Shown here: positions 6,819 through 64,000 of the stretch, piece by piece
Numbering within the stretch: the first letter of the stretch is position 1
Layout of the letters: each line of letters starts with the position of its first letter
Assembly: GCA_944384535.1 (NCBI GenBank)
Contig: CALWTS010000031.1
Location: 71,461 to 135,460 of the forward strand
Length of the DNA: 64,000 nt
Direction of reading: 5' to 3'
Origin: an uncultured Clostridia bacterium
Lineage (GTDB): Bacteria; Bacillota; Clostridia; Christensenellales; UBA1242
Notes under the pieces: generated by a model
The model's input: the letters and a program-made list of their open reading frames with translations, nothing else
What the model was told of the DNA's origin: nothing
The model's database searches: none
Position numbers and translations under genes: made by a program

Positions 6819-6954
6819 TTTATTTTATCCCTTTTAACCGATATATTTTAGCATAATAAAAGCAATTTTACAAGTAAGATAAAATAAATTCTAGCAAAAT
6901 CAAAAATGAAACAAAAAAAAGAGCTTATTAAGGACTATAAACTTTGAAACTAGC

Positions 6955-6990
6955 AAAAAAATGAACCTAGAAATTTCTAGGTCATTTTTT
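6955..6990. terminator. Intrinsic terminator downstream of the AAA ATPase gene
   Basis: AAAAAAATGA-A-CCTAGAA/TTCTAGG-TCATTTTTT stem with flanking A/T tracts. Confidence 0.6.
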
Positions 6991-8782
6991 ATTCTTCTTC
7001 AAATTGTTTAAGTCTTCCTATATCTTCATTAGATACACTTGATTTTAATTCTTTTGAAACATTTAACGCATCTTCCATAGTTATTAAATGTTCTTCGCCA
7101 GTCTTAATACTTTGATTTATGGCTTGCATCTTCAGCCTTTCACAAAACTCTGTAATATCTGCGCCATTAAATCCGTTTGTTAATTTTGCTAATTCTTCAA
7201 AATCTAGTTCTTCAGTTGGAATACCTTTCAATTTTATTTCAAACAATTTTATTCTTGCTTCTTTGTCTGGCAATGGTATATAGATTTTTTCATCAAATCT
7301 TCCTGGTCTTAGAAAAGCACTATCTATTGACCAAGGCTTATTTGTTGCAGCAATCACAACAATAGTCGAGTCATTTGCAGAAGTTCCAACACCTTGCATT
7401 TCGGCAAGAATTTCCGGAACTAAATCATTATTCCCATTGTCTGCACTTTCTGTTCTTTTTGAGCCAATCGCCTCAAATTCATCAAAGAATATAACTGCTC
7501 TTTGGGCTTTTCTTGCTTTTGTAAAGATTTCTTTAACTTTCTGCTCAGATTCTCCATACCATTTTGACTTTATATCCGAGCATTTAACTGGCAAAAACAA
7601 AGCATCAACTTCATTAGATGCGGCTTCTGCAAACATTGTCTTTCCAGTTCCTGGCAATCCATACAGAAGAATTCCACCACCAGCTTTCTTACCAAATTTT
7701 TTGTATAACTCTGGGTGTTCAAAAGGCAAAATTACTTTTTCTCTAAAGGCATCTTTTGCTTTATCAAGACCTGCAATATCGTTAAATGTTATAGAACTTG
7801 TTTTAACTTTTTTATTGCTGTCATTAGATTTTTTACTTGATTTTTGCAACACCGAAGAATCTCCACCAGCGTAAGCGACTATAGCATTTATCAGATCAGA
7901 TTTTTTTGTTCCAGACGCAACAATACCTATTTTATCACAATACTCTGCCAAATCATCTTTTCTAATTTGTTGTAATGCACTTTTGTTTGTTCCACATTCA
8001 CTAACTAATGCCGTTAGTTTTTTATAATATTTTTCTTCCTTTTTATGTTCAATTTTCTCACTCATTTTTCCAAAAGGATTCAAGTTATTCATATCTAACA
8101 ATGCTTTTATTCCAGACATCAAAAGACATAATAAGACTGTCGCAACAACTCCAATTAAACATATTATTAACGGAAACCAATTTGCCGAGCCACTCACAAA
8201 AGGAGATATAAAACTTAAACCAAGAATTACTGCAGTTCCTATCCAAGTTCCTACACTTTCAAAAATATCTGACAATTCTAAATCTTTAAATAAAATAATA
8301 AAAAGATAAACTAACGCCAGTATAATAGGAGCAATGATTATTATCAGCCACCAAGTTTGATAAGTATTCCAAAGGTTATCAAATGTAGCAGTCCACGAAT
8401 CAAGTTCCAATTTGTCTATATTCCCGTCAACAACTATATAACTATTTCTTGTTCCATTATTATTAGCTTTAACACCAAAATCCCAATAAAATTTCACATT
8501 TTTAACAAACTGATTATCTTTATACAACCTAAAAGTGCAATCTTCTTTTATCATATTATATATGGTATTATTTTCAAAATATAGCAAAAAATCAATTCTT
8601 GTTGTGTCATTCTCAGCATTATATGTGTATGTAATTTCTTTTGAAGTTGCACAACCAGTTTGAGTTTTATCTGTTGATGCACAACCAGTAAATAAAGTCA
8701 TAACAAAAAATAATACAACAAATGCTAGAAATATTTTTAATATTAAACTTTTTCTATTATTAAGAGTTTCTAAATGTTCCAT
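6989..8782 (-). CDS. Membrane-anchored AAA+ ATPase (CDC48/Vps4-like AAA domain, N-terminal lipobox, TM helices, SAP/HeH-like segment)
   Basis: Walker A GLPGTGKT, SKWYGESEQ pore loop, Walker B FFDEFE, SRH AATNKPWSIDSAFLRPGRFD; LFTG-C lipobox. Start moved to ATG 8782 because the longer ORF start reads through the non-coding hairpin. Confidence 0.85.
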   Translation of the reverse strand: MEHLETLNNRKSLILKIFLAFVVLFFVMTLFTGCASTDKTQTGCATSKEITYTYNAENDTTRIDFLLYFENNTIYNMIKEDCTFRLYKDNQFVKNVKFYWDFGVKANNNGTRNSYIVVDGNIDKLELDSWTATFDNLWNTYQTWWLIIIIAPIILALVYLFIILFKDLELSDIFESVGTWIGTAVILGLSFISPFVSGSANWFPLIICLIGVVATVLLCLLMSGIKALLDMNNLNPFGKMSEKIEHKKEEKYYKKLTALVSECGTNKSALQQIRKDDLAEYCDKIGIVASGTKKSDLINAIVAYAGGDSSVLQKSSKKSNDSNKKVKTSSITFNDIAGLDKAKDAFREKVILPFEHPELYKKFGKKAGGGILLYGLPGTGKTMFAEAASNEVDALFLPVKCSDIKSKWYGESEQKVKEIFTKARKAQRAVIFFDEFEAIGSKRTESADNGNNDLVPEILAEMQGVGTSANDSTIVVIAATNKPWSIDSAFLRPGRFDEKIYIPLPDKEARIKLFEIKLKGIPTEELDFEELAKLTNGFNGADITEFCERLKMQAINQSIKTGEEHLITMEDALNVSKELKSSVSNEDIGRLKQFEEE

Positions 8783-8876
8783 AATTTTACCTTTAATAAA
8801 AATATCAATTTCATTATAACATATAAAATTGCAAATTGTGCTAATAAAATATAAATAATATATAAATTTTATTATT

Positions 8877-8947
8877 TGGCATTTAGGCGTGTGCTTGTCT
8901 TGATACAAGTCGGTGTCGCTTCGCTCCACCGAAAGACAAGCACACGC
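8877..8947 (+). repeat. Hairpin repeat copy 1; putative rolling-circle double-strand origin
   Basis: 15-bp stem GCGTGTGCTTGTCTT/AAGACAAGCACACGC enclosing an inner CGGTG..CACCG hairpin. Contains CTTGATA (8899-8905), the phiX174/pC194-type nick motif. Near-identical inverted copy at 53155-53222. Confidence 0.75.
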
Positions 8948-9231
8948 TAATAATCCAATTGTGTTACAAAAAGAGCGGTTGCTGGCAGAGCGTAACGCAA
9001 TCCGCTCTTTTGTTTTTTCTCTCTTTTTCTAGTATAAACGAATATTCTTTGTTGTCAATGTTAAATTGAATGTCTAAAAATTTGCAAATTGAAAATTATA
9101 ATAACAACCTATGACAACGGCAGAAGTATTCGTTTTTTTTGCAATTAAGAGAGAATTAAGCGCAAAAGAAAACATAGGTGGTTTTTACCTATGTTTCTCT
9201 TTAATATTCTGCTAGTTTCAAAATTGCTTGC

Positions 9232-10110
9232 CTAAGCACTCCTTTTTTTTCTATTTTTTTTTATTTTTATAATTAAAAAAGATAACAATATAAATAATAA
9301 TGTTATAAAAATTGCAAATACATACCACCAGCCATAATTGATTATTAATAGATAAATAGATACCAAATTTTCATCATTTATATTTTCAAACTCAACTGTC
9401 CAAATGTGATAAAAAATGTTATTGTTCGAAAATTGATAATTTGCATTAGATTGTATTTTATCAAAAACAGTAGAATAACTATAGATAAAACTAGGTTTAT
9501 AATTGTTCTTAATATAAGATTCAAATGATAAACCTTGAGAAGAATTTATAAACTTTTGAGCATAAATTTCTCCTATAGTTTTTTCCTCTCCATTCATTGT
9601 TGATTTGTTTGAAAAAATAAATTTTCCGTTTGAGATTTTTTTATTATAAAAAATATTTCCTTCTGATGGAACATTGCTAGATGAGTTGTTTCCATTACTA
9701 TTGTAATAACTCCAAGCCTGCAAGGAACTAAATACAACACTAAATCCTATTACCTTTTGATCACTATTGTAAGTTACATCTGATAGCAACACTCCTTTAT
9801 TAATTTTAAATTCCTCAATTGGATTTTGCAGGTAAGTCAAAGCATAATTAAATAAAAAATTATTTCGAATCTCAACAATCTCTTCCTTTAGGTTTTGTTT
9901 AAATATTTCAAAATCCTTTTCATTTGATAAAGAAATTATTTTGTCCTCATCTAACGAAAAATATAGCATTTGCTTAACTTGACTTTCACCAATATCTAAA
10001 GCAAAAACTATAAAATCATCAGTAGTATCATATAAAATAGAATTATTTTGAAATCCAGATAAAAATAAAAAAGAGAATATCAATATAATTATGAATGAGT
10101 ATTTTTTCAT
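9232..10110 (-). CDS. Exported protein with C-terminal TM anchor
   Basis: 292-aa ORF with a signal-like N-terminus and a C-terminal TM helix followed by a basic tail. Confidence 0.7.
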   Translation of the reverse strand: MKKYSFIIILIFSFLFLSGFQNNSILYDTTDDFIVFALDIGESQVKQMLYFSLDEDKIISLSNEKDFEIFKQNLKEEIVEIRNNFLFNYALTYLQNPIEEFKINKGVLLSDVTYNSDQKVIGFSVVFSSLQAWSYYNSNGNNSSSNVPSEGNIFYNKKISNGKFIFSNKSTMNGEEKTIGEIYAQKFINSSQGLSFESYIKNNYKPSFIYSYSTVFDKIQSNANYQFSNNNIFYHIWTVEFENINDENLVSIYLLIINYGWWYVFAIFITLLFILLSFLIIKIKKNRKKRSA

Positions 10111-26031: not shown

Positions 26032-26106
26032 TGGCTCCCCAGGTAGGATTCGAACCTACGGCCTATCGGTTAACAGCCGAGCGCTCCACCACTGAGCTAC
26101 TGGGGA
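26032..26106 (-). tRNA. tRNA-Asn (GTT)
   Basis: Reverse complement TCCCCAGTAGCTCAGTGGTGGAGCGCTCGGCTGTTAACCGATAGGCCGTAGGTTCGAATCCTACCTGGGGAGCCA folds as a cloverleaf with GTT anticodon and encoded CCA. Confidence 0.97.
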
Positions 26107-29823: not shown

Positions 29824-29829
29824 CATGTA

Positions 29830-30090
29830 AAAGCGTTGATCAAGAAAAGTAACATAAAAACTTTTTTACAGAGAAGTGAGATTGCTGAGAACTCACTAAA
29901 AAGATTATGTGAAAGAACACTTGGGAGCTGTCTTTTCGAAAAATGATTTTAGTAGGGAAGATCGGGTCGCCCGTTATAGCGGTTTTAAATAAAGTGGAGA
30001 TTTATTCTCAAGTTAGGTGGCACCGCGAGTCATTCGTCCTAACACTAAGACAAATAGTCTAGTGCTTAAGGCGGATGACTTTTTGTTTTG
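29830..30090 (+). promoter_or_regulatory. T-box riboswitch, Asn specifier (AAC)
   Basis: Stem I with AGAGA and GCTGAGA motifs, specifier loop GAAAGAACAC (AAC at 29916-29918), AGTA and CCGTTA motifs, T-box AGGTGGCACCGCG (30015-30027), and terminator 30028-30090. Confidence 0.92.
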
Positions 30091-38508: not shown

Positions 38509-38573
38509 TATATTTTTTACCTCTTTTAATTTTTAGTTTATTTTAAAAAATATAGAGCCTTGATAGGCTCTAT

Positions 38574-39123: not shown

Positions 39124-39131
39124 CACTTATA

Positions 39132-49692: not shown

Positions 49693-49798
49693 TGAAATAA
49701 ATAAAAAACAGACTAAATTAGTCATAGAAAATTGAAACTTGCAGTTTTTAGACTAAAAGATAAAGAGCATATATTTGAATATGCTCTTTTTTCTTTGC

Positions 49799-51307
49799 CT
49801 AGATTACTGAATAGACATCATAAGTTAAAGTTTTTGTTCTAGTTGTTCCACCTTTGAAAGTTCTAGTTATTTCAAGTGTTTCAGTAAATGCATAACTTTT
49901 AATTGGTACATATTCGGTATTGCTTTGGTTTATTGAATAGTTAAGTCCAATTTCTATTTTATCTTCATATACTTTAACAAACTTTAGAAATAAATCTATT
50001 GCTTTGTCAGGACATTCTTTCATTGTTAATTTAAAGAAATTTTGTATATCTTCTCTTGTTAATTCATAGCTAACTTTAGATTCTTCAATTATCAATTTTT
50101 CGCTTAAACCTTTTCTTTGTGTTTCAAGTTCTTCCAATCTAGATTTTGTTGTTTCAGTGATTATTCCTTTTTCTATTGCAGACATTATATTTGAAATAGC
50201 TGTATTTACTCTTTGCAAGTCAGATTTAATGCTTATAAGTGAATTGTTGTTCTTTGTTCGTTTCTTGTTTTCTTCATAGATTAAATCGGTTATTGTGTCT
50301 AGATTCTTTTGAATTGTGAATTGTTGTTTAAAGAATTTATCTACAACACCTTCTATAAAGTTCTTTTCAGTAATTCTTGTTAAGCAGTTGTCATCTTTCT
50401 TTGTTGAAATACATTTGTAATATCTTAAATAGTTTCCATTTCTAGATTTTGTTGAAAATGGATACATTTTTCTATTACAATGACCACAATATAGTTTGTC
50501 TTTAATTCTAAAGATTTCGTGATTATCTTTTCTGCAACCATATCTAGTTAAATTCATTCTTTTTTGTACTTTATCAAATAGTTCTTTAGTTATTATTTGT
50601 GGGTAAATTTTATCATATACTTTGCCATTAACTGAATATTCGCCAGTATATAGTTTTCTTTTGAGCATATCTCTTATTGTTTGTGGTATAAACTTATGTC
50701 CATTTCTTGTTATATTTTCTTTTTCAAAATCTCTTGATATTTGCAATATTGTTTTTCCACTAGCATAATCTTCAAATATTCTTTTTAAAATTATTGCTTC
50801 TTCTTCATTTATCTTTAACATTTTATTCTCCTTTATATAGCCGAAAGATACATCTCCTATAACATGTCCTTTCATCCTTGATTCGTGAAGTCCACGACTT
50901 ACTTTTTGAGCAAGTTCTTCACTAAAGTATTGATTCATTCCTTCGAGTAATGATTCAAGCAAAACTCCTTCAGGTGTTTCTGGAATATTTTCCATAGCGG
51001 ACAAAAGTTTTATTCCATTATCTTTTAAGTGTTTTCTGTGTATTGCAGCTTCATATTTGTTTCTTGCAAATCTGTCTAATTTATACACCAAAACATAGCT
51101 CCATTTTTTGTTGTTGCTATCTTTTAACATTCTTTGGAATGAATATCTTTCATCTGTTGTTCCACTTATTGCTCTGTCGATATATGAATCAACGATGATG
51201 ATGTTGTTGCGTTTTGCAAAGTCTTGACATACATGTACTTGACCTTCAATACTTTGTTCAGTTTGGTTTGTACTGGAATATCTAGCATATATTACTGCTG
51301 TTTTCAT
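49799..51307 (-). CDS. Large serine recombinase
   Basis: AVIYARYSS (catalytic Ser), VYKLDRFARN, recombinase domain, zinc ribbon CGHC...YYKC, coiled coil. Confidence 0.95.
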   Translation of the reverse strand: MKTAVIYARYSSTNQTEQSIEGQVHVCQDFAKRNNIIIVDSYIDRAISGTTDERYSFQRMLKDSNNKKWSYVLVYKLDRFARNKYEAAIHRKHLKDNGIKLLSAMENIPETPEGVLLESLLEGMNQYFSEELAQKVSRGLHESRMKGHVIGDVSFGYIKENKMLKINEEEAIILKRIFEDYASGKTILQISRDFEKENITRNGHKFIPQTIRDMLKRKLYTGEYSVNGKVYDKIYPQIITKELFDKVQKRMNLTRYGCRKDNHEIFRIKDKLYCGHCNRKMYPFSTKSRNGNYLRYYKCISTKKDDNCLTRITEKNFIEGVVDKFFKQQFTIQKNLDTITDLIYEENKKRTKNNNSLISIKSDLQRVNTAISNIMSAIEKGIITETTKSRLEELETQRKGLSEKLIIEESKVSYELTREDIQNFFKLTMKECPDKAIDLFLKFVKVYEDKIEIGLNYSINQSNTEYVPIKSYAFTETLEITRTFKGGTTRTKTLTYDVYSVI

Positions 51308-51484: not shown

Positions 51485-52360
51485 TTAATAACCCTTTGGT
51501 AGCTTATCTATTAACTCTTTGCTAACAGTTCCTAAAACCTCTCCAGTAGAAAAGTTCAAACATCTAAAGTTGTCAAATAGCAGTATCTTTCTATCTTCTT
51601 GTCCGATAGTGCAAACAACATCATCTTCGAGTATATCTGTTATGAAAAATGTCTGTAAGTGTTTTGAATAGATTACTTTTTCACCAGTTTTTCGTATATA
51701 TTTAAGCATATACATAATGGATTCTTGAGTATGATTAGCATTTTCTATTTTGCTAAAGTCATTTCTTCCAAAACTCTCCAAAAAGAATATGTTTTGGTGT
51801 GTAATTTGCATTTGATGAGTTTTGGTTGAATAATCTCTAGTTTCTATAATTTCGCCAACCATTTCGGCTATTACAAATATTCCATGAAAATGTAATCTTT
51901 TTTGTTCAGGGCTTCGTTCAAAGACTCCTATATATTTCCAACCTTTGCGAGTGGAAAGGTGTCTTAAGCAATTTAGAAATTTAACTCTAAATTCTTCTTC
52001 AGTGAGTTTTGAAGAATCATAAGTGAAAGTGCAGAAGTAGTTCCATTGTTGTAAATTGGCTTTTCGGAATAATCTTGTAAGTCTTACAATTCTGTTTCGT
52101 TTTTCTTTTTCAATTACTTTGTTTACGATTTCTTTAGTTTTTTCAATATCTTTTACTTTTTCGTTTAGTTCATTTACAATTCGTTCTTTCTTTTCCTGTT
52201 TGGTTTCATCAGTACATTCATTTAACATTTCTTTAACTTTCGATTCTGTTTCAGTAGGTTTTACTGATTTATGCTTTTTCTTTTTCCAACTTTGAGTTGT
52301 TTTTGGTATGCCAATGTAATGACTACCATCGAAATATACTTTAGTTTCTTGATAGTCCAT
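51485..52360 (-). CDS. Rolling-circle replication initiator / relaxase (HUH endonuclease)
   Basis: Motif I FCTFTY, motif II RLHFHGI, motif III YMLKYIRK (two tyrosines); SD AGGAG before ATG 52360. Confidence 0.85.
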   Translation of the reverse strand: MDYQETKVYFDGSHYIGIPKTTQSWKKKKHKSVKPTETESKVKEMLNECTDETKQEKKERIVNELNEKVKDIEKTKEIVNKVIEKEKRNRIVRLTRLFRKANLQQWNYFCTFTYDSSKLTEEEFRVKFLNCLRHLSTRKGWKYIGVFERSPEQKRLHFHGIFVIAEMVGEIIETRDYSTKTHQMQITHQNIFFLESFGRNDFSKIENANHTQESIMYMLKYIRKTGEKVIYSKHLQTFFITDILEDDVVCTIGQEDRKILLFDNFRCLNFSTGEVLGTVSKELIDKLPKGY

Positions 52361-52469
52361 TTTGTTTCTCCTTTTCTTCAAGGATTAAATTAAGCATGGC
52401 AACAATAAACTCATGGTCGATAAGCGATAAATCTAGCACATTTTTGATTTCGTTAGTTGTTTTTTGCAT
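52341..52469 (-). CDS. 42-aa protein overlapping the rep start
   Basis: SD AAGGAG + MQKTTNEIKNVLDLSLIDHEFIVAMLNLILEEKEKQNGLSRN*. Confidence 0.5.
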   Translation of the reverse strand: MQKTTNEIKNVLDLSLIDHEFIVAMLNLILEEKEKQNGLSRN

Positions 52470-53007
52470 TTTTTTAACTCCTTTTTTAATTTTTTGGAAT
52501 TAAAAAAGACATAGAAAAAGATTGTTTTTCTACGCCAAAATGTTTACTGCCTTATATTTTCCCTTAAGGCTAAGGTCGGTACTTTTTTTATTTTTAATGG
52601 TTACTTAAAACCTAACTAACTTATTCTTATCTAAACTATACATCTGTAATCTTTCTAATTGTTCAACATTTGCGTTGTCCTTTTAATTCAGTTGTTTTTG
52701 TGTTTCTAACTTGTGCACCAATTAAAAACACAATTTAGTAATACCATTTGAAACTCAAAAAGTGAATGACATAACTTGACATCTTCTTGATGTTTATATG
52801 ACTTATTTTTGATTTCATTTGATATGACTTAGCTTTTAGTTAGTCGACTTTCAACTAAAGGCACTTTGAGAGTATCACGAAAATTTTGAAAAAACAAGAA
52901 AGTAAACCTATACTTTACCTATACAAAATCCAAACAAACATATACTTTACCCAAACTTAATGCAAACAAAAGTATAATGTTTGGGTAGTTTGTTAGGATT
53001 TGTATTC

Positions 53008-53145
53008 AAACTTGCTGCTTGAATGTTCCAGTGAAAATACATACATGAGCAAAAAAAAGAAGGCGTACCCACAATTGCTTTAGCATGTGGACGCCTTTTT
53101 TGCTCATGTTATTTTCCATTCAAGCAGTTTGGGCTCAGCAAGTTT
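53008..53145. repeat. Long imperfect hairpin next to the origin (possible single-strand origin)
   Basis: Nested arms AAACTTGCTG/CAGCAAGTTT, TGCTTGAATG/CATTCAAGCA, ACATGAGCAAAAAA/TTTTTTGCTCATGT, GGCGT/ACGCC, CCACA/TGTGG. Confidence 0.6.
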
Positions 53146-53154
53146 TATTTAGAA

Positions 53155-53222
53155 GTGTGCTTGTCTTCGGTGGAGCGAAGCGACACCGACTTGTATCAAG
53201 ACAAGCACACGTTTAAATGCCA
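53155..53222 (-). repeat. Hairpin repeat copy 2; putative double-strand origin upstream of rep
   Basis: Reverse complement matches 8877-8945 except for two substitutions and one indel; CTTGATA lies on the rep coding strand (53194-53200). Confidence 0.8.
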
Positions 53223-53229
53223 TACATTT

Positions 53230-56200
53230 TTATTTATCAAATGTTTGAATGATTTTATCGAGGAAATCTTTAGCAAGTGGCCTTCTTAAAAATTCATGGT
53301 ATTTTTGGTTTTTGTAGTTTTTAATACAATTATAACAAGCAACATCACAGCAATTTTGACTTACTTTTTCATATGCATATTGGAAAGCTTTTAACATTTC
53401 TTGTTTATTTAACAACCTTTTAACATGTCCAGCTCCTCCAGGAACAGTATCAAATAAAACAAAAACATGCTTATTATTTTCGTTTACATATATACCATCT
53501 ATGTCATTACGTTCTATATCAAAAGCAAAAGCAATCCCTTCTAATAATGCATACAAAGTAGAAATAGCTTGATTATAGCCCCCTTCAAAAGGAAGAGAGA
53601 TTACCATTTTTAATACGTCTGTTTTATATGAAAAGCCCAATCCTTGTCTAATTAGTTTTGTATTATTACATTTAAAATTGTTACCTTCATGTTTTTTATC
53701 TATATGTGGCAACATTGCATGTTCATTATCTATAATTGTATATCCACAATCTTCACATACAAAGAAAGGATTTTCGTTTACGATTAAAAGTTCATCATTT
53801 TTTGTATTATAAAATTGCAAATAATCATTTACCTTTATAACATCTCCATCCAAAGTACCATTTCCTATATATTTTACAGGAGAAGAATAAGATCTTTTAG
53901 GTTTTAACTCTGTAGCTGTATTTCTTTTTATTTCTCCTGTAAACCCAAACTTAGGTGTAATGAATTTACCCAATTCTTTCATTATTTCTTTATTTTTACA
54001 CTCTGGGCATTCAAATGATTCTTGTTCAGAATATCTGAGAACCGTTTTATGGCAATTTGGACATTCATAATAATAAGTTTGTAGTAAAGCGTTTGGCTTA
54101 TTGATATACCTAGACACTATAGTCTTTTTATCCACCATAATTTCTGAGTCAGGTGCGTATTCAGATAAAGCAATTTGCATATCTCTAGTTAAATCATAAT
54201 TATCAGTTTTAACAGATATGTCTTTTATTCTCATTTCTACTAAATCTGTTGGGAATCCATATTTAGGAATTAAATTGCCATCTGCTAATTTACATATAAG
54301 ATCTTTATCTTTTGTAATTAAATTGATTTGTTTAGCGAAATAAGAAATACCATTATCATCGTTATTATCTATTGCTTCCTGCTTTCCTTGTTCAAACTCA
54401 TTTAATAATGTATCAATTTTTTCTTTAGAAAGCTTTATATTTAATTCTGAATTACTCAAAACATTATCTATCCATGTCCCATTCATTAGTTCCTTTGCTT
54501 CTGAAGAACACAATACATCATTTGTACTTTTAATTAAAGATTCTGGTTTAGAATTTAAGAAATCAATAAATAGTTCATATCCACCATCCAAATAGAATGA
54601 TTTAACGCCATCAAATGCTGTAACATTTATTTTAAAAAATTCAGATAATGCCATAGCCAATAAATGTCTATATATTATTTTATGATTTTCCATAGTAAAA
54701 ACTGGAGTATTACATATTCCCTCCACCATTCTTAATGGATTTTCAAAAAAAGTATAATCGTGAGATGTTGGACTACAATATGTCAATACAAAAGCAGAAC
54801 TATCTTGAGCTCTTCCTGCTCGACCAGCTCTTTGTATGTAATTAGAAGGAGAAGGTGGCACATTCCTTAACAAAACATTTTCTAACGAACCAATATCTAT
54901 TCCCATTTCAAAAGTGGTTGAACAACTTAAATAATTTATTTTTTTGTTTTTAAATTCGTTCTGTCTTTCTTTGCCTGTCTCCGCAGAAAGTTGTGCTGTA
55001 TGCTCTTTGTAAACTAATTTTTCTATTTTCTTATTTACATATTGATATCTATAGTAATTATTCTTGAATAGTTCATCTGGATTTGTTAATTCTAATGTAT
55101 CCTTTTCAAAGCAGTGTTGACATATATTTTTTGCATTGAACCTTGTTATCTTACGGCATTTTTTACAATAATACCAATTTGTATCGCTGTATTTATGTAA
55201 ATAAAATTTATCCGCATTTATTGAATAAAGTTTATTCCTTGCATCATATTCATTTAATATCTTTGTTTGAATAAAAACATCCCAAACTTTTTCAATTAAT
55301 TTATCTGCTGTTCCCTTATCAATATTAAACATTTTTTCAGTATAGGTTTCTATTCTATTTGATTTATTAGAATTCGCAAGTAATCCATGAACTGATCTAG
55401 AAATATCTTTATTATCTGAGTCATGAATTTTGTCTGATTTTATTAATCTAACGTGATTATCAAACATTCTATAAGCAAAATAATTTTCTCTATCTTCCTT
55501 GGTTAATCCCTCATAATAGACTGCAGGAATTGTTCTTAGACTATTTATTATAAAATGAAGATATGCTTTAAAATCGTCGATTGTAATAGGTGTTGTAATA
55601 TTCAGACCTTCTTGTTTTATAAAACTGCTCACATCATCGTTATTTAAGTTTTGAACTAATTGTGTAACTGGCATATAATCAAAATAGTATAATCCAAGTC
55701 CTTCACCTCCGTATATACCATCCACATTCAATACTTCTCTTAATAAGGTAATTTTTGCTTGTTTTGTTGATGATAACAAATTATCTCCATTATTAGTATC
55801 AAATAAATCTTGTTTGTCTATTATTGAATCTAGTTTTGCTTCTGCTGTCTCAAATGACATTACTTCATTATCTTTCAGTATTTCAAACAATAGTCTTTTT
55901 CTTAATAATCTGTGATGATTATTTTCCGCAAATTTTACAGCAAAACTTGCTTGTTGTCGAGAATCTGAGAATGAAAGGATTTGTTTGGTGTTTTTATTTA
56001 ATTGATTATTTGAATTAGTATTCCCACCTAATAAAGGATTTGAGTGAACAACAACATCATTTTCTGTATTGTTATTATCTATAGCTTCAAAAAATATTTG
56101 TGTTATAAGAGCTGTTGCTGATTCCTTTCCCATACTTACAGTTCTTATAAGACCTTTCTTTGATTTTCCATTACAAATAGGACAATTTGTAAGATTGTTT

Positions 56201-57921
56201 TTAACTTTGCTGTCAACTTTATTTATTTTATATATAACTATTTTTTCAACATCATTATGCTCACATGCTAATAAAGATTTATCTGCTGTTCTTTCATCAA
56301 TCAGTTTACCACAAATAGGACATAATGAATACTTCTGTAAGTTTGAATAATCAACATCAATATTTTTTATTTCATCCTCTAACACGAAATAGTCTAGAAC
56401 GATGTTTTCATCTTCTTCATAGTTTTCATAAATATCTACTGAATTATTTTGATAAAGTTTACCATTCTTTTCTACCCCTATGATATACATAGAATTGCAT
56501 TTAGAACACGAACCTATCTCAAATGCTTTTTTACCTTTAATATATTCTCTTTGACTTAAAGATAATTGAGGGTTTTCGCCAAGTGTTATAAAAGCACCTG
56601 CAACAGATCTAACAAAAGAATGATACTTGAGATCCATAATTTTTAATCCACATTTTTTACATTTACATATCAAATCAATGAATGCTGACAACATTTCTAC
56701 TGTTTTGAAATCATATTGTTTCATTTTATTGTACAAATCAATAACAGACATTGATGCTGATAATGTGTTATTTAGCAAATATAAATTTCTATCACTAATT
56801 ACTAAGTCATATAACCTATTATCAATATTTGTTTCAGAAGAATTTACATTATACTTATATAGCAAGCTATTTAATGTATCCAAATTATAGTTATTGTAAA
56901 GATTTTCATAATCTATTGGATCAATTTTAAATTTAATGTTTGATGAATCTAATTCAATTCTATCTGAGAACAAAATGTCTTCTTTATTGTATTTTTTAGA
57001 CGTCAATCTATATCCAAACTCTTGTATCTTTTTTATTCCTTCTTCATTGTTTTCTCCAAGAGTAGCACTCGTTAAAATAAATTGTACATCATGACCTATC
57101 CTTTGTTGCAAACGTCTAAGCAACATACCAATTTCAATACCCAAAGCTCCTTTATATGTATGAGCTTCATCTAAAACAATAAATTTCCACTTTTCAGCAT
57201 TTTGTTTAGAAAGAAGTGTATCGTCTTTTGGTCTTAATAAAATATATTCCAACATCGAATAATTGGTAAAAAGAATATGAGGAGGATTCTTTCTAATAGA
57301 CTCCCTATCCAACAACTCATTTCTTCCGACATCATTTCCCGTGGTTGCTTTTATATATTCTCTTGTTCCATCAATATCTCCATCTGTGTTTTTTGTATTA
57401 CCTGTGAAATACCCATATTTGATTTCTGGGTATTTGTTTAAAATTTTTCTAACTCTATCAAATTGATCGTTGACCAAAGCGTTCATCGGAAACAAAAATA
57501 TTGCTCTTATCCCAGGTTCATCTATATTTTTTTCTTGAAGTATTTCATTAATAACTGGATATAAGAATGACTCAGTTTTTCCACTACCCGTACCTGTTGT
57601 TACGATTAAATTATGCCCTTGATGTATAAGTCTAATTGCTTTTTCTTGGTGTGATCGCAACTTTCTATCCAAGTGCATATCTCCAAGTAAACGAAAATCC
57701 TTATGAACAATACCTTCTTCAATAAGTTCATTTATTGTTTTAGTTGTTTTAAATTCTAAATTTTTACTGATATAGGGACCTTTTAAAAGTTGTGTATTAT
57801 TTAATTCTTGCTTAAATTGTTCCCTATATATATCACTTTCTAAATCATATGTAGAGGCTATATATTTTCTAAAGTTATTCTCTATATACTTAGCTTTTTC
57901 TATTGGATTTAAAGTTTGCAT
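53230..57921 (-). CDS. Large DEAD/DEAH helicase with C-terminal DUF1998-like Zn domain (DruE-like)
   Basis: TGTGSGKTESF, PMNALVNDQ, LDEAH, TSAT, STTFEMGIDIG, QRAGRAGR, several CxxC pairs, and C-terminal DTVPGGAG...CDVACYNC. Confidence 0.85.
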   Translation of the reverse strand: MQTLNPIEKAKYIENNFRKYIASTYDLESDIYREQFKQELNNTQLLKGPYISKNLEFKTTKTINELIEEGIVHKDFRLLGDMHLDRKLRSHQEKAIRLIHQGHNLIVTTGTGSGKTESFLYPVINEILQEKNIDEPGIRAIFLFPMNALVNDQFDRVRKILNKYPEIKYGYFTGNTKNTDGDIDGTREYIKATTGNDVGRNELLDRESIRKNPPHILFTNYSMLEYILLRPKDDTLLSKQNAEKWKFIVLDEAHTYKGALGIEIGMLLRRLQQRIGHDVQFILTSATLGENNEEGIKKIQEFGYRLTSKKYNKEDILFSDRIELDSSNIKFKIDPIDYENLYNNYNLDTLNSLLYKYNVNSSETNIDNRLYDLVISDRNLYLLNNTLSASMSVIDLYNKMKQYDFKTVEMLSAFIDLICKCKKCGLKIMDLKYHSFVRSVAGAFITLGENPQLSLSQREYIKGKKAFEIGSCSKCNSMYIIGVEKNGKLYQNNSVDIYENYEEDENIVLDYFVLEDEIKNIDVDYSNLQKYSLCPICGKLIDERTADKSLLACEHNDVEKIVIYKINKVDSKVKNNLTNCPICNGKSKKGLIRTVSMGKESATALITQIFFEAIDNNNTENDVVVHSNPLLGGNTNSNNQLNKNTKQILSFSDSRQQASFAVKFAENNHHRLLRKRLLFEILKDNEVMSFETAEAKLDSIIDKQDLFDTNNGDNLLSSTKQAKITLLREVLNVDGIYGGEGLGLYYFDYMPVTQLVQNLNNDDVSSFIKQEGLNITTPITIDDFKAYLHFIINSLRTIPAVYYEGLTKEDRENYFAYRMFDNHVRLIKSDKIHDSDNKDISRSVHGLLANSNKSNRIETYTEKMFNIDKGTADKLIEKVWDVFIQTKILNEYDARNKLYSINADKFYLHKYSDTNWYYCKKCRKITRFNAKNICQHCFEKDTLELTNPDELFKNNYYRYQYVNKKIEKLVYKEHTAQLSAETGKERQNEFKNKKINYLSCSTTFEMGIDIGSLENVLLRNVPPSPSNYIQRAGRAGRAQDSSAFVLTYCSPTSHDYTFFENPLRMVEGICNTPVFTMENHKIIYRHLLAMALSEFFKINVTAFDGVKSFYLDGGYELFIDFLNSKPESLIKSTNDVLCSSEAKELMNGTWIDNVLSNSELNIKLSKEKIDTLLNEFEQGKQEAIDNNDDNGISYFAKQINLITKDKDLICKLADGNLIPKYGFPTDLVEMRIKDISVKTDNYDLTRDMQIALSEYAPDSEIMVDKKTIVSRYINKPNALLQTYYYECPNCHKTVLRYSEQESFECPECKNKEIMKELGKFITPKFGFTGEIKRNTATELKPKRSYSSPVKYIGNGTLDGDVIKVNDYLQFYNTKNDELLIVNENPFFVCEDCGYTIIDNEHAMLPHIDKKHEGNNFKCNNTKLIRQGLGFSYKTDVLKMVISLPFEGGYNQAISTLYALLEGIAFAFDIERNDIDGIYVNENNKHVFVLFDTVPGGAGHVKRLLNKQEMLKAFQYAYEKVSQNCCDVACYNCIKNYKNQKYHEFLRRPLAKDFLDKIIQTFDK

Positions 57922-60676
57922 ATTGTTTTTCTCCCAATGTTAAATTAATTCTATATTTTGAAATATATGGAGCATCCTTACTACAACCATTTATTAAAGT
58001 TTTATTATTTGCATCATATTGTAAATAGTCTACCCATGCATCATCTTCAAAACTATCTTCATAGTAAACAGATATATCTGCATCACAACAATAATTATTG
58101 TCAATATAATAAACTTGTGAAATATTGATCAAAACTTCTTCAATTTTATTAAAAGATTCTATTTTGCCTTTAATGTTTTTATATAAAAATCCTAAGAAAT
58201 AAAATTCATTAAATCTTTTTACAAGTTTCAAGTTCAAATTTTGAGTATCTAACATTTCAGAATCATCTTCAGCATTTTGTAACAAAACTTTATCTATTAC
58301 CAAATATTTATTAATAAGGTCTGATAAAGGATAATAGGCAAAGTTTCCCTCGACTAAAGATTCCTCGCTTTCGATAGTTTTAAATCCTGAAAACGACTGC
58401 ACTTTTCTATAAACACAATAATGTACTTTTTGTATTTTACTGCCCAATTTAAATACATTAATATTGTCATAATTATTTACTATATCTTCTGCTATAACTC
58501 CATTTCTATTTGATAGTCTTATATAAATTATATCATTTGATTTTTTACCATATAGAACTGTTTTAAATTGTACTTCTTCACTATTTGAATCAACTGTATA
58601 ATATGATTCTTCCGAATCGAATACAATATTATTATAGATTCGCAAAAAATTCTTTTCGCTATTCTCGGATCTAAATGATATTTCTACTAAATTACAATTT
58701 TTAAAGTTAATAAACTCAGATAATTCTATATACTGTTTAGATTCAATAGTTTTAATAGTTAATTCATTAATTGTATCGTCTGCTTTATATATAACTTTAT
58801 CACAATTAGATACGTTAAAAAACAGCTTTGATTGGAATGTAAAATCTTCAGAAGTGAGATAGTGACTAAATGTATTTATGCTACCATCATCGATTTTATA
58901 ATATGGAACAGTTAATGAGAATTTACATTTGTATAAATCGTTGTTTATATTCAAATATAATTTCTTTTTATCTAAGTCATTAATTAAAAGACTAAAATCA
59001 GTGTAAATTCTGTTCGCTTTATCTGTAATTGCAAAATTACCATAATATTGAAAAGATATAGTATAATCATTCAATATCATTTGTTGAATCTCAATGCATG
59101 GATCATATAATAATTCATACTTGCAAACAGAGCTATTTTGTTGTATATCGACTAATTCTATTGTGTAGTAATTGGCTTCAATATGCATCTCTTGTATATT
59201 TAATATGTAAGCAATTGTATTCGGTTGTTCAATAATTTCTACAAACTCTGTAGAATCCACAAATTCTCCATTTATTTTAATTCTATTGGCAGATTTATTT
59301 AAATTATGACTAATTAATGCTATATTCTCAATGTTTTTATAAATAGGAATTATATCATCTTGTTTTGTTAAATCTAAACCTAAAATTCTATCACCTATCA
59401 CACCTGGCCTTATATTGTTAGAGAAAAGTATATAATATTTATTATCCAAAATAAATTCATCATTTTCGCAAACTGTTGCATACGATATTTTGTAAAAATC
59501 ATATTCTTTAAGTTTTGTTAATCGCAAATCACAATTTTGTTGATATATAAAATATACAATGCCATTATATGCTTTATTATTTTTAAGCTCTTTGTTGTCG
59601 TCGAATAACATGTAATTTCTAAAAAGATAATCTTTACTGTCATAAATAACTTCATTATCATAATAAATTTTACAACTTATTTTATTCAATGGGTTTTCTA
59701 TCTTATAATCACATTGAATAATTTCACTTCCACCAAGAAGCTGATTTATTCTTAAATTATCATTTTTATAAATCATCTTTTCATCTTCTAATATCTCAAT
59801 TGAGAATAACTTTGGATCATATGAGCCAAAGATTCTTTTAGTAGGAGTATGTAAATACACTGTGCCATTATTGTTTAAATACGTAAAATAAGGAAATTTG
59901 CTTTTTATAAAATTAGTTCTAGTTCTAGTCCTTGTTGTTACAGTTTCTTGTGTTTCTTCTAACCATTTATTAAATGATTCATCTATATAGCAGTTAGTAC
60001 TTACATTTTTACCTCTATAATAGTTATCTAGTTTCTTAATTATATCTTTTGTAAATAATAGAAGTTCATCTCTTTTAAAACCAGTTCTTATAATATTTTT
60101 TGTTGCTCTTATTAGTTTATATGTTTTAGAATTGTTTTGTTCATAATTGTATTTAAAGGAATCATCTGAATCATTTAAATTTCCACCAATCGCTTTAAAA
60201 ACATTTTCAATTTCTTCTTCAATATTATATTCAGAAATATTGCAATCCATATTCTTTACATAAATATCATTTGCAAATTCAATATAATTTGAAGCATATT
60301 TAAATGGAACAATTGCGTTCATAACAGGTATTTGATAGTGTTTTCTTTCGCAGTTATACCTTGTTGTTAGTAAACTTAATACACCATCTCTAATTTTTGA
60401 TTCCATTATCTTTTGATCTGGAAAAATCTCAGAGAATTTTTCATAAACATAGGGCCATAAAGCTCCATCATAATATTTTAATGCTAAGAATGTTAACCCT
60501 AAAATCGTCAAATCTCTTGATTCTTGCGAAGGAAAAGATCGCCATAACACTTCTTTAAATCCTTTCTTTGTAAATGATATTATTTCATCTTCAAAAATTG
60601 GATCATTTAAATGTTTTAACAAAGAATATGCTTGCGTCTTGCTATTTATTAACTCTTTCAATTCTTCTTCAAACAT
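57890..60676 (-). CDS. Large hypothetical protein overlapping the helicase start (Druantia accessory-like)
   Basis: 928 aa; helical N-terminus (KYYDGALWP, NAIVP) then a beta-rich region; overlaps the helicase gene by 32 nt. Confidence 0.65.
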   Translation of the reverse strand: MFEEELKELINSKTQAYSLLKHLNDPIFEDEIISFTKKGFKEVLWRSFPSQESRDLTILGLTFLALKYYDGALWPYVYEKFSEIFPDQKIMESKIRDGVLSLLTTRYNCERKHYQIPVMNAIVPFKYASNYIEFANDIYVKNMDCNISEYNIEEEIENVFKAIGGNLNDSDDSFKYNYEQNNSKTYKLIRATKNIIRTGFKRDELLLFTKDIIKKLDNYYRGKNVSTNCYIDESFNKWLEETQETVTTRTRTRTNFIKSKFPYFTYLNNNGTVYLHTPTKRIFGSYDPKLFSIEILEDEKMIYKNDNLRINQLLGGSEIIQCDYKIENPLNKISCKIYYDNEVIYDSKDYLFRNYMLFDDNKELKNNKAYNGIVYFIYQQNCDLRLTKLKEYDFYKISYATVCENDEFILDNKYYILFSNNIRPGVIGDRILGLDLTKQDDIIPIYKNIENIALISHNLNKSANRIKINGEFVDSTEFVEIIEQPNTIAYILNIQEMHIEANYYTIELVDIQQNSSVCKYELLYDPCIEIQQMILNDYTISFQYYGNFAITDKANRIYTDFSLLINDLDKKKLYLNINNDLYKCKFSLTVPYYKIDDGSINTFSHYLTSEDFTFQSKLFFNVSNCDKVIYKADDTINELTIKTIESKQYIELSEFINFKNCNLVEISFRSENSEKNFLRIYNNIVFDSEESYYTVDSNSEEVQFKTVLYGKKSNDIIYIRLSNRNGVIAEDIVNNYDNINVFKLGSKIQKVHYCVYRKVQSFSGFKTIESEESLVEGNFAYYPLSDLINKYLVIDKVLLQNAEDDSEMLDTQNLNLKLVKRFNEFYFLGFLYKNIKGKIESFNKIEEVLINISQVYYIDNNYCCDADISVYYEDSFEDDAWVDYLQYDANNKTLINGCSKDAPYISKYRINLTLGEKQYANFKSNRKS

Positions 60677-60696
60677 AGCGACTCCTTTTCTTTTGT

Positions 60697-61416
60697 TTAT
60701 TTTTTAAATATAAAAATATATTCATGTGCCAATAGTAAAAAGTTGTATTTTTGACTATTAGTTTTCCAAAAGCCTGTTGCTTTGCAATTATGCTGTTCTT
60801 TTATAATTATTTCTTTTTGTTTAAAGCCAGCATTTACAAACCTTTGCATAACCTCAAAACCAAGAGGTTGTACCATGCCATTCTTTCGAGTATCTCCCAT
60901 AACGATTGCACAAAATTTATCTTTTTTAAGAACTCTATAACATTCACTAGCAACTTTTTCAATTGTGGCTAAAAACTCTTTGTATTTTAAGTGAGATAAG
61001 TCGCCATCAATGTCATCACTATATTTGATAATATCTGCATAAGGTGGATGTGTGCATATTAAATCTATACTATTATCATCAACATTTTTTAAATCACAAG
61101 CATTTCCTAGTTGGACTTCAATATTGTTTTCAAATTCGCAATCAAAATCAAGTTTATCTTTTGTTAGTTCAACAGCTTTTGGGTTTATATCTATTCCAAT
61201 AGCATTTCTATTGTTTAACTTACATTCAACAAGAGTGGTACCACCGCCAACAAATTGGTCTAAAACTAAATCATTTGGTTGAGAGTATCTTAAAATTATA
61301 TTTTTTGCTACATAGGGCGAAAAATTCCCACGATATTTTGCATCATGTGTTGCCCATTTGCCACGATTAGGAAAGCTCCAAACCGTATTTGTTTCAAGTT
61401 CAAAATCTTCTTCCAT
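60697..61416 (-). CDS. DNA amino-methyltransferase (N6A/N4C)
   Basis: VLDQFVGGGTT SAM-binding motif, THPPY catalytic motif, HEYIFIFKK. Confidence 0.85.
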   Translation of the reverse strand: MEEDFELETNTVWSFPNRGKWATHDAKYRGNFSPYVAKNIILRYSQPNDLVLDQFVGGGTTLVECKLNNRNAIGIDINPKAVELTKDKLDFDCEFENNIEVQLGNACDLKNVDDNSIDLICTHPPYADIIKYSDDIDGDLSHLKYKEFLATIEKVASECYRVLKKDKFCAIVMGDTRKNGMVQPLGFEVMQRFVNAGFKQKEIIIKEQHNCKATGFWKTNSQKYNFLLLAHEYIFIFKK

Positions 61417-62276
61417 TATTTTAGGATTTCCTTTAATTTTCCTTGCTCCAATTCTTTTAGATTAAAGATGTTATCTAAAACATCAAAAGTTTCTTCAAGA
61501 TTGTTTTTTGCACCTTGCCAACCTAATCCATCTGTAATCCAAACAAAAGCAAATCCTTTAATGTTTTTACTTTCTTCAGCAATCATTTTATAACTTCTTG
61601 CTGTTTCATTTAATTTAGAACCATTGCTTGAATAAAAGTTCGTTTCAAATGCATAAATACAATTTTTTGTTTTTACAACATAATCAAATCTTTTTGCAAC
61701 TTTGCCAAGATTGGAAAGTTTTGATAAGTCAATGTTCCATTTTTTCTCAATATCACTCAAATACATTTCTTTGAAGTATGTTTGATTTTTTACAAAACCG
61801 GCTTTTTCAATATATCCTTGCAAAACATCTTCCATTAGATGACCGCCACGATTTTTCCTTCCATTTGAGCCAAGCCCAACTTCAACACCAGTAGCATAAT
61901 CAACAAGATTGTTAACTAAGTGATTTGATATCAAATCGAAAAGTCCTGTTTTTCTCATAAATCTTTTTAATAAATCAATATCATCTATTGTTTTGAAATT
62001 GTATTTAAGTTTTTCGCCTTCATCAATAACTTTAATTTCATTTTCTCTAACAGCAATAAGAAGTGGCAAACATTTTCTTATCTCTGGATATTTTTTGAAA
62101 AGATTATCAAAATCCTGTTCAATATTTTTTGAGCCAATAAGAGAATTCATAATATTAAGTTCAACTTTAAGTTTGTCAATATTTCTATAAACCACATTAA
62201 AATCGGTATAGTAATCATAAGTTGCGATACTATCTGTAAACTCATTAAACCATTCTTTAAAATCTCTTTTTATCAT
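61416..62276 (-). CDS. DpnII-family type II restriction endonuclease
   Basis: YYTDF, LNIMNSLIG, GVEVGLGSNGRKNRGG, KRFDYVV, ETNFYSSNGSKLNETARSY, WITDGLGW. Confidence 0.92.
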   Translation of the reverse strand: MIKRDFKEWFNEFTDSIATYDYYTDFNVVYRNIDKLKVELNIMNSLIGSKNIEQDFDNLFKKYPEIRKCLPLLIAVRENEIKVIDEGEKLKYNFKTIDDIDLLKRFMRKTGLFDLISNHLVNNLVDYATGVEVGLGSNGRKNRGGHLMEDVLQGYIEKAGFVKNQTYFKEMYLSDIEKKWNIDLSKLSNLGKVAKRFDYVVKTKNCIYAFETNFYSSNGSKLNETARSYKMIAEESKNIKGFAFVWITDGLGWQGAKNNLEETFDVLDNIFNLKELEQGKLKEILK

Positions 62277-63595: not shown

Positions 63596-63597
63596 AT

Positions 63598-64000
63598 TTA
63601 TTTTCTCCTTTTGTAATTTCTTATAACAATTTCAGTTATATCTCCTCGTTTATCTGCTTGGCAATTTATCATTCTTTTTGCAAAAATCCTATCAATCTCA
63701 AATCCTTTGTAAAGCTCATCAAAGAAATTGTCATCAGGGTTGGTGTTTTTTGGATCTGAATTGCTAAGCATTACTAAACAATTTTGTTTATCAAGTTTTT
63801 TTACAAATTCAGCAAGTTCCTTTTGATTATTATCATTAAAACCTGATTTATCATAACCAACAAATGATGAGTTTTCTATAAGTGGACGATATGGTGGGTC
63901 AAAATATATAAAAGTTCTACCATTCACATATTCTTCACAAATAGAGTAATCTCCAAATCTAATTTCAACATTCTGTAAAAGGTTGCTTATTAGAGTTAAA
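63598..64000 (-). CDS. Dam/DpnM-type adenine methyltransferase (3' part only)
   Basis: FIYFDPPYRP, VMLSNS, R-IN...RG-ITE C-terminal motifs. Confidence 0.9.
   Translation of the reverse strand, partial: LTLISNLLQNVEIRFGDYSICEEYVNGRTFIYFDPPYRPLIENSSFVGYDKSGFNDNNQKELAEFVKKLDKQNCLVMLSNSDPKNTNPDDNFFDELYKGFEIDRIFAKRMINCQADKRGDITEIVIRNYKRRK

Follow-up and report, generated by a model that had tools for sequence, protein, structure and literature searches.

What keeps an almost unchanged hairpin at two sites 44 kb apart in the AT-rich DNA of an uncultured Clostridia bacterium? The question is raised by a stretch of 64,000 nt (contig CALWTS010000031.1, positions 71,461 to 135,460 of the forward strand; hereafter the window), in which one copy of a GC-rich hairpin lies on the plus strand and the other on the minus strand. 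Each copy is part of a small integrative element, the non-autonomous E2 and the autonomous E1, respectively, and comparison with related sequences suggests that the hairpin is probably a cis-acting site that is nicked by an element-encoded Rep protein of the two-Tyr HUH type, i.e. the rolling-circle origin of such elements. We take it as Rep nick site and origin because the pattern of the site fits a sequence-specific protein acting on a structured substrate, and because Rep is the only factor consistently linked to it. The two copies are:

8877..8947, plus strand: hairpin copy 1, which belongs to the non-autonomous element E2 and is its putative Rep nick/origin site
53155..53222, minus strand: hairpin copy 2, which belongs to the autonomous element E1 and is likewise its putative Rep nick/origin site; the rep ORF follows on this strand after 774 nt

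The copies are 68-71 nt long; GG/AA at 8887-8888 and an additional A at 8933 are the only differences between them, and their 44-nt core, GTGTGC...CACCGA, occurs exactly twice in the window with 0 mismatches, 0.00 occurrences being expected from 100 shuffles. A preliminary description of this DNA, made from its letters alone, had reported near-identical, GC-rich nested hairpins in AT-rich surroundings, and both the sequence and the fold bear this out: the G+C content of the window is 22-34%, and as single-stranded DNA (ssDNA) an 86-nt stretch around the hairpin folds with -24.6 kcal/mol as compared to -8.1 +/- 2.1 kcal/mol for 200 shuffles (z -8.0, 0/200 as good). The outer stem of the hairpin measures 16 bp and the inner stem 6 bp, a bulge of 8 nt (GATACAAG) opens on one side between them, and the apex is GC-TTC-GC, which reads GCGAAGC on the complementary strand, as described earlier; d(GCGAAGC) is known for its stability. 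In both copies CTTGATAC is unpaired within the bulge. In copy 1 CTTG (8899-8902) and ATA (8903-8905) lie at the 5' edge of the bulge, CTTG↓ATAC spanning 8899-8906, and the cut that had been predicted between G8902 and A8903 is correctly placed on the sequence.

On the minus strand the order of features around copy 2 is a gene for a 1563-aa helicase, the hairpin, a 165-nt palindrome, ~600 nt of non-coding DNA, a 42-codon open reading frame (ORF), a 298-aa ORF and the gene for a 502-aa large serine recombinase (LSR):

52990..53154, minus strand: long imperfect palindrome that follows hairpin 2 immediately and is a candidate single-strand origin; -41.6 kcal/mol, z -8.7
52341..52469, minus strand: orf42, small ORF kept upstream of rep in related elements
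51485..52381, minus strand: Rep, two-Tyr HUH; 298-aa ORF, likely start ATG 52360, giving 291 aa; FCTFTY, HFH, Y217-x-x-K-Y221
49799..51307, minus strand: LSR of E1, 502 aa; Resolvase 2e-27, Recombinase 1.2e-17, Zn_ribbon_recom 6.6e-7; phrog_95 integrase 3.3e-92

As the preliminary description states, copy 2 lies upstream of a rep with HUH and two-Tyr motifs on the same strand. None of the motifs FCTFTY, HFH and Y-x-x-K-Y varies in an alignment of 14 homologues with identities as low as 44%; the fixed residues include H157, F158 and H159 of motif II (RLHFHG) as well as Y217, K220 and Y221 of motif III (Y217-M-L-K-Y221). The protein matches Pfam family PF23343 (REP_ORF2-G2P; 1.5e-10, 41.7 bits with a cut-off of 27.8), and at E <= 0.001 the profile search returned only this family plus a spurious DHC_N2 match, with no match to Y1_Tnp among the Pfam profiles. 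PHROGs contributed no Rep family, NCBIfam and PADLOC gave nothing, and a sequence search of the PDB gave nothing below E 0.25. An AlphaFold2 model (mean pLDDT 70.6, core 80-93) appears closest to HUH nucleases: its best matches are the Helitron transposase, with Z 7.5 at an rmsd of 3.0 over 135 aligned residues, and SIRV1 ORF119, with Z 7.4, and Foldseek gave probabilities of 0.99 for SIRV1 ORF119 and 0.96 for wheat dwarf virus Rep with a best E-value of 0.011, which we regard as supportive only. The family has 2226 members at E <= 1e-5; among the 120 listed, all seven that are named by their source are called 'hypothetical'. Many of the listed homologues are found on contigs of ~2.8-3.6 kb, a size that corresponds to a hairpin-rep-LSR unit devoid of cargo, and these contigs could be assembled circular forms. 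In the LSR the Resolvase, Recombinase and zinc-ribbon domains are all present. As to orf42, a role in copy control or as directionality factor is a guess.

The linkage of hairpin, rep and LSR recurs elsewhere. At 9 of 10 public Rep loci the hairpin precedes rep on its strand by 0.5-1.9 kb, the tenth having only 755 nt of upstream flank, and an LSR gene follows rep at 9 of 10, the contig of the tenth stopping too early. The same hairpin-(orf42)-rep-LSR module is present in genomes G051, G053 (twice), G012 and G095, and in a decayed form in G044. Moreover, there is a second arrangement, in which rep faces the hairpin from a distance of ~0.17-0.19 kb; it was mapped at three loci (in G027, G053 and G095) and read from coordinates in G025 and G057, with rep closing an operon in which a Zot-like ATPase (phrog_197, 1.4e-7) is also encoded. 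This Zot-linked form may be an inovirus-like prophage that shares the origin/Rep module. At two of the mapped loci (L074, 7331-14289 of G053:C26; L075, 7799-15090 of G095:C14) the hairpin lies ~0.19 kb downstream of, and opposite to, a gene for a Rep of 348-365 aa that ends an operon of unknown ORFs. In total, 37 hairpin instances were considered, the script having returned 39, from which one reverse-strand regex artefact and one duplicate (the G044 locus, counted twice) were removed. A same-strand rep lies downstream in 14 of them and a facing rep in 3, and 11 have an element end-site, RE1, at a distance of 0.15-0.5 kb. Six others have less than 500 nt of flank, allowing no call, and 3 with at least 1.5 kb of flank fit no pattern.

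The genome from which the window derives (1.24 Mb, 50 contigs) contains four hairpin copies, one Rep and one cognate LSR. Among 60 congeners the hairpin was found in 33 (1-12 matches each) and Rep in 13, with both in 11, the hairpin only in 22, Rep only in 2 and neither in 25; in 40 genomes from other families of the same order the numbers are 3 for the hairpin and 7 for Rep. The relatives are not independent of one another. Rep-less mini-elements are commoner than rep-bearing elements. One congener, G040 (loci L080-L088), has 12 hairpin matches and several complete RE-bounded elements of 1.2-2.2 kb, with no Rep detected by the query used here, and looks like a burst of mini-elements lacking a resident master. 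Public contigs with Rep are metagenome-assembled genomes (MAGs) of Clostridia or Christensenellales, and the runs that contain the stretch are mostly chicken-gut metagenomes.

An alignment of 36 distinct hairpin copies reveals which parts of the structure are under constraint. The left arm, the bulge/loop and the right arm are invariant or nearly so, and the asymmetric bulge has a fixed orientation relative to the backbone in every copy. The inner stem varies by paired substitution (CGGTG/CACCG, GCTG/CAGC, GGC/GCC, GTCG/CGAC, GTTC/GAAC), pairs 42-58 and 43-57 showing 7 double changes each; overall, 88% of the cells are paired as compared to 25-50% when the partners are slid by 1-3 columns, and the covariation score is 0.103 as compared to 0.061 in shuffles. 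The outermost stem pairs are frequently mismatched (20/36 and 17/36), and the apex can be missing, as it is from the shortened hairpin variant on contig C27. The conserved motif that is predicted to be nicked is exposed in a stem-loop that lies near rep and is co-inherited with it, as expected of a double-strand origin (dso). The origin function that the preliminary description had assigned to the hairpin gains support from these comparisons, namely from the rep linkage in two architectures, the conserved loop and the covarying inner stem.

Where, then, do the elements begin and end? They are bounded by two inverted half-sites of ~23 nt (GCTAGTTTCAAA...) around a TAA core. When E1 is compared with copies elsewhere that are 93-97% identical, the match begins at hairpin base one and ends at ...TTTCTATGACTAA, ~80 nt past the LSR gene. 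The ends of all LSR-related elements read GC(T/A)AGTTTCAAA-N9-GACTAA, beyond which come 7-10 variable bases and then a T-run, and this motif occurs as outward-facing pairs around the hairpin, with the inverted partner (...CCTTA) located 0.8-1.9 kb or more upstream; distances of 94-650 nt upstream obtained with a looser pattern for the inverted end-site, RE2, probably reflect chance matches and were left out. The outward flanks of cognate ends match each other (mean 11.5 for 13 pairs as compared to 7.4 for 156 non-cognate pairs, 0.6% of which reach the cognate median), the window's own end-pair scoring lowest of the 13, with 8. The simplest reading of these sequences is that the end motifs would be the P and P' half-sites of an attP of ~49 bp with TAA as core, and that the attB target would be a short palindrome consisting of A-run, stem, loop, stem and T-run, similar to a bidirectional terminator. 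Inverted half-sites, a short common core and, as outlined below, an empty attB in relatives are all found, as expected of an LSR element. At locus L218 (1960-2130), on an Oscillospiraceae MAG contig, RE1 abuts an inverted RE2 (...CAAC-TAA-GGAC...), and a unit of ~100 nt (RE2, 50 nt, RE1) stands in tandem with a second RE2-headed element; this unit may represent a minimal element, or else a remnant left by tandem integration.

E2 extends from TAA 6929-6931 to TAA 9233-9235 (2.3 kb) and comprises an ATPase gene, the hairpin and a structured backbone; it has neither rep nor a recombinase gene and has kept both att ends, as is typical of a non-autonomous element:

6913..6954, no strand assigned: attL of E2; target half A8 GAGCTTAT, TAA 6929-6931, inverted RE2 (GGACTATAAACTTTGAAACTAGC) 6932-6954
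6989..8785, minus strand: cargo of E2, 598-aa AAA+ ATPase with an IetA/IteA-like C-terminal half; PADLOC IetA 4.7e-35, NCBIfam IteA 3.8e-32, the latter below the curated cut-off
8948..9208, plus strand: conserved non-coding backbone of E2, ~260 nt, candidate single-strand origin; three hairpins including the inverted repeat 9039-9057/9113-9133, z -5.8
9211..9250, plus strand: attR of E2; RE1 (GCTAGTTTCAAAATTGCTTGCC) 9211-9232, TAA 9233-9235, target half GCACTCC T8 9236-9250

The query used to locate the site matched in 60/60 congeners, and 29 loci were examined. In none of these does an inverted RE motif occur within 330 nt upstream of bipA, two forward matches with one mismatch looking like chance, and none has a homologue of the E2 ATPase at the locus. 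A homologue of the neighboring 292-aa ORF (p292) lies next to bipA at 12 of the 29 loci, and the bipA-p292 gap, 2417 nt in the window, is 110-250 nt at the 5 congener loci where it was measured. The empty site of G023 is an intact palindrome (A8-GAGA-ATTAA-CTCTC-T6), and E2 is flanked in the window by A8-GAGCTTAT-TAA-...-TAA-GCACTCC-T8. Judged by these comparisons, E2 is an insertion relative to the congeners. In an independent run, X8, E2 is present on a 5.5-kb contig with 13 differences in 1972 nt; the match ends at 6930, and the 179 nt by which the contig continues past this position were not compared with the window flank. Coverage gaps in runs X5, X7 and X8 are not read as absence. Copy 1 heads a non-coding unit of ~360 nt that is 77-86% identical in seven other species and has the same end motif. 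As the conserved E2-type backbone (~300 nt) is not found in autonomous elements, the E2-type mini-elements, which measure 1.1-2.3 kb and contain one to three genes, form a lineage of their own rather than being fresh decay products. Their cargo includes short-chain dehydrogenases, a GDSL-like hydrolase, a methyltransferase-like protein and others, all named from motifs and unprofiled. At the right-hand side of E2, the end of the element provides the stop codon of the 292-aa ORF (9232-10110), which itself follows a 3261-aa ORF on the minus strand (10159-19944) that has no Pfam match.

E1 reaches from 49718 to beyond 64000 and comprises LSR, rep, orf42, the 165-nt palindrome, hairpin 2 and cargo:

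49703..49742, minus strand: attR of E1; RE1 (GCAAGTTTCAATTTTCTATGAC) 49742-49721, TAA 49720-49718, target half TTTAGTCTG T6 49717-49703
53230..64000, minus strand: cargo of E1, running off the window; DruE-like helicase (PADLOC DruE 2.1e-169), 928-aa ORF, type II methyltransferase, DpnII, 440-aa ORF, Dam-like methylase

Its left end-site is an RE2 at C45:165-205, on the contig that comes next, where both the rare GCAAGTTTCAA variant and the flank GTCTGTTTTTT recur. From this matching RE2 and from the overlap of 127 nt between contigs C31 and C45 we derive a length of ~15.9 kb for E1. In E1 and E2 alike, the hairpin is located exactly at the boundary between variable cargo and conserved backbone.

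Based on this anatomy we suggest the following cycle. The LSR would excise the element by recombination of attL with attR, each att consisting of a half-site of ~23 nt, the TAA core and a target half. Rep would then nick the hairpin of the resulting circle, the predicted cut falling within the bulge, at the G/A step of CTTG↓ATAC, and prime leading-strand synthesis, and the palindromes just downstream may act as single-strand origins that turn the displaced strand back into duplex. Finally, the LSR would reinsert the circle into another palindrome of the A-run/stem/T-run type; the same nick could also feed the conjugation pore of a helper. As the genome contains one Rep and one cognate LSR and E2 has neither, any activity of E2 must come in trans, i.e. 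E2 would borrow both proteins. That the copy without a rep depends on Rep supplied in trans had been proposed before, and the finding of an RE-bounded element of 2.3 kb in a genome with a single Rep speaks in favor of it.

Several observations weigh against the assignment of the hairpin as Rep origin. The argument from CTTGATA is an analogy across families, as Rep matches neither PF01446 (Rep_1 of pC194) nor PF05840 (phiX174 A) at E <= 0.001. For the motif itself there is a precedent: the pC194 rolling-circle origin fragments given in PMC7072734 contain TCTTGATAATA, which includes CTTGATA. The base before the predicted cut, normally G, is T in L075 and A in L105, both of which are rep-linked. 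The fold scores of Rep are middling, ribosomal S6-like or ferredoxin-like folds scoring nearly equally (Z 6.9-7.2). In 22 of the 33 hairpin-positive congeners no Rep is detectable by the query used, and such persistence without Rep fits stranded hitch-hikers and equally a role independent of Rep. The Rep loci of G060, G093, G085 and G080 (43-50% identity) and all more distant ones (36-39%) have no recognizable hairpin nearby, and a looser search near the distant Reps returned only weak AT-rich inverted repeats. A joined attP was not found by pattern scans of the assembled contigs of two collections, genome_contigs and the JGI metagenome collection, which may lack the relevant samples: with the strict pattern all matches were irrelevant, 1 in genome_contigs, which was coding, and 4 in metagenome_contigs, and the loose one gave 120 stretches, nearly all of them chance, with one informative tandem (L218). 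Likewise, neither nicking nor a circular form nor an ssDNA intermediate was seen in the data used, which are assembled contigs and not raw reads.

How do other explanations fare? The hairpin might be purely an origin of transfer (oriT), Rep being a non-canonical relaxase and the elements being integrative and mobilizable elements (IMEs) riding the pore of a helper and not replicating as vegetative circles. This would be in line with the streptococcal IMEs of PMC5704250 and PMC5357655, in which integrases are paired with putative relaxases akin to initiators of rolling-circle replication (Rep_2, PHA00330, Viral_Rep), and with the integrative elements with an oriT only and with nearby defence genes described in a 2026 preprint (Ares-Arroyo et al.). 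The gene content of the elements fits that of IMEs, and elsewhere in the host genome there are a gene for a VirD4-type coupling protein (C30, 1.7e-35) and a weak AAA_10/VirB4-like match (C10, 33.5 bits). However, neither E1 nor E2 has a coupling-protein or pore gene, strong ssDNA palindromes follow directly after both hairpins, as expected of lagging-strand origins, and the hairpin-Rep pair is also found beside the Zot-like morphogenesis ATPase, pointing to a phage-like genome replication. We therefore consider a transfer-only function rather unlikely; dso and oriT roles as such are mutually compatible. Somewhat less probable still is that the hairpin is chiefly a recombination site for cargo exchange, where Rep starts at the hairpin of one element and stops at that of another, or which serves the recombinase as a second site, with replication being secondary. 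The homology between the 93-97% identical elements starts precisely at the hairpin, with unrelated cargo upstream, the contigs of all four gut metagenome runs match from 8874-8877 onward and differ before, the mismatches of the outermost stem look as if the arms came from different parents, and one metagenome contig joins 6960 to 8875 without the cargo, its short side measuring only 22 nt. Yet a sharp boundary is to be expected anyway where constraint starts in AT-rich DNA, a recent swap is seen in one closely related pair only (the window and L100), L105 matches 24 bases further upstream, and no half-hairpins were found in this genome.

A selfish or host-recruited palindrome similar to repetitive extragenic palindromes (REPs) or miniature inverted-repeat transposable elements (MITEs), independent of Rep and found beside rep by hitch-hiking or target preference, would explain the 1-12 copies in hairpin-bearing congeners, most of them Rep-less, as well as the depth of the hairpin, which is ~5-18x that of the adjacent cargo in the three gut metagenome runs holding cargo. 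We regard it as improbable, as copies with sufficient flank lie in RE-bounded elements or beside rep, the bulge is never reversed relative to the backbone, and Rep is a two-Tyr protein in an LSR-bearing mobile module and not a single-copy Y1 REP-associated tyrosine transposase (RAYT) flanked by REPs. Typical REP families also have copy numbers tens of times above that of this hairpin. The scattered repeat without link to rep or att ends, which had been named as the outcome that would speak against an origin, is not seen: all four copies in the genome are RE-bounded or beside rep. Least credible is a transcription or RNA element of the flanking genes, such as a terminator, an RNA stabilizer or a small RNA. 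The RNA does fold similarly well on both strands (-36.6 and -37.9 kcal/mol), and copy 2 begins 8 nt past the stop codon of the helicase gene, but no T-run follows the hairpin and separate terminator-like hairpins come after it, copy 1 is antisense and copy 2 sense to both neighboring genes, the bulge sequence itself is invariant beyond what pairing requires, and the hairpin matches no Rfam family at the gathering threshold, the only Rfam matches in the window being an OLE RNA, a T-box and a tRNA.

Some further arrangements were considered and rejected. A single 44-kb element or inversion bounded by the two copies is at odds with the core genes, OLE RNA, T-box and tRNA in between and with the separate att pairs. 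The hairpin is not the left terminus of a 3.5-kb element, as inverted RE2 end-sites place it internally, at the cargo/backbone boundary, nor is it an attB or split target, as the other element end has no half-hairpin. An integron attC or IS200/IS605 ends would call for a tyrosine integrase or a Y1 transposase, neither of which is nearby, and the window copies are inverted, unlike the ori/ter pair of IS91.

The same genome holds two more such elements, both rep-less. One extends from C40:53496 to C44:~150 and has helix-turn-helix, uracil-DNA glycosylase-like and tubulin-like genes. The other, of ~10.5 kb, spans C22:1-720, the whole of C27 and C31:1-3375, contains SMODS, DUF6602, RNase_T exonuclease, Macro and PD-(D/E)XK genes and the apex-less hairpin, which is included in the 37 instances, and both its ends are of the ...CCTTAA type with the common flank TCTTCGT8. 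Next to attR of E1 lies a HAM1/RdgB-like gene (49113-49692, plus strand; N-terminus FVTSNKGK) in three frames (49113-49229, 49298-49591 and 49606-49692), either a pseudogene or a misassembly; behind this gene comes the terminator-like palindrome split by E1. Elsewhere in the window there are a full-length OLE RNA (38561-39137, minus strand, 359 bits; the genome has ~27% G+C), a T-box leader (29827-30044) and a tRNA (26035-26106).

Parts of this system resemble known ones. Protein A of phiX174 has a two-Tyr motif resembling Y-x-x-K-Y, and the origins of pC194 and phiX174 are cut at CTTG↓ATA; to our knowledge, neither of them needs such a long hairpin. As in these replicons, the putative origin precedes rep on the coding strand and, as in pC194, contains CTTGATA, but here the motif sits in the bulge of a long conserved hairpin and Rep is outside both families. 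Tn4451 and Tn4453 of clostridia have an LSR that excises a circle, an oriT, a mobilization protein and cargo, their relaxase being of the MobV (Mob/Pre) type and their targets GA dinucleotides; LSR and circle are thus alike, whereas here a Y2 HUH Rep and palindromic targets are found. Mobile insertion cassettes (MICs) and MITEs are short non-autonomous derivatives that retain only the ends of their autonomous parent, may carry a passenger gene and outnumber their masters. In the mini-elements described here, by contrast, the ends are serine-recombinase att half-sites and not transposase inverted repeats, and the putative rolling-circle origin is kept.

The nearest described kind are Firmicutes IMEs with relaxases similar to rolling-circle initiators (Coluzzi 2017, PMC5357655; Guedon 2017, PMC5704250), which are likewise small integrated elements with their own integrase, an HUH protein of the rolling-circle type and cargo and without pore genes. 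Among the streptococcal ones, 16 with serine integrases are reported there, and two roles are proposed, one in transfer and one in maintaining the circle after excision (PMC5357655, PMC5704250). Rolling-circle Reps have also been reported to act in mobilization (PMC5714925). In contrast to these IMEs, the E1 family resides in uncultured Christensenellales-like gut Clostridia, its Rep belongs to PF23343, which may or may not correspond to CDD PHA00330, its hairpin origin lies 0.5-1.9 kb upstream of rep, TcpA is absent and many rep-less mini-elements exist. The targets, too, differ, being terminator-like palindromes here and gene ends or tRNA genes in the streptococcal IMEs as presented in these papers; a narrow full-text search found no literature on serine integrases that target terminator-like palindromes. 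Like the cis-mobilizable elements (CIMEs) of PMC5704250 and the iOriT islands of Ares-Arroyo et al. (2026 preprint), E2 keeps attL, attR and a putative origin, lacks recombinase and Rep, would depend on a helper and has a defence gene beside the origin. Unlike them, E2-type elements measure only 1.1-2.3 kb and have one to three genes and a conserved backbone of their own. Taken together, what sets the family apart is its Rep family, the defined hairpin origin, the palindromic targets and mini-elements of 1.1-2.3 kb with their own conserved backbone.

We may speculate further, in a doubtful but far-reaching direction, that these elements form an undescribed cassette system, in which dozens of units of 1.1-2.3 kb, each with one to three accessory or defence genes, a common origin hairpin and serine-recombinase att ends, reside in the loops of different terminator-like palindromes and are driven by a rarer Rep+LSR master, their cargo being shuffled as Rep starts at one hairpin and ends at another, which would explain why the junction of cargo and backbone is always at the hairpin. 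If true, a plasmid origin and a phage-type integrase would here be combined into a functional counterpart of integron cassettes. Independent of this speculation, the findings provide a testable anatomy, i.e. origin hairpin, att half-sites, TAA core and palindromic target, for a Rep family of >2000 proteins, and a serine integrase that accepts many short palindromes with A/T arms would have an unusually relaxed attB recognition and may be a possible tool. Rep-less mini-elements that outnumber their masters, as MITEs do with transposons, are little documented for integrase-based elements, and in small-genome uncultured gut Clostridia such elements may constitute a route for Druantia-like, restriction-modification, IetA-like, SMODS and accessory genes.

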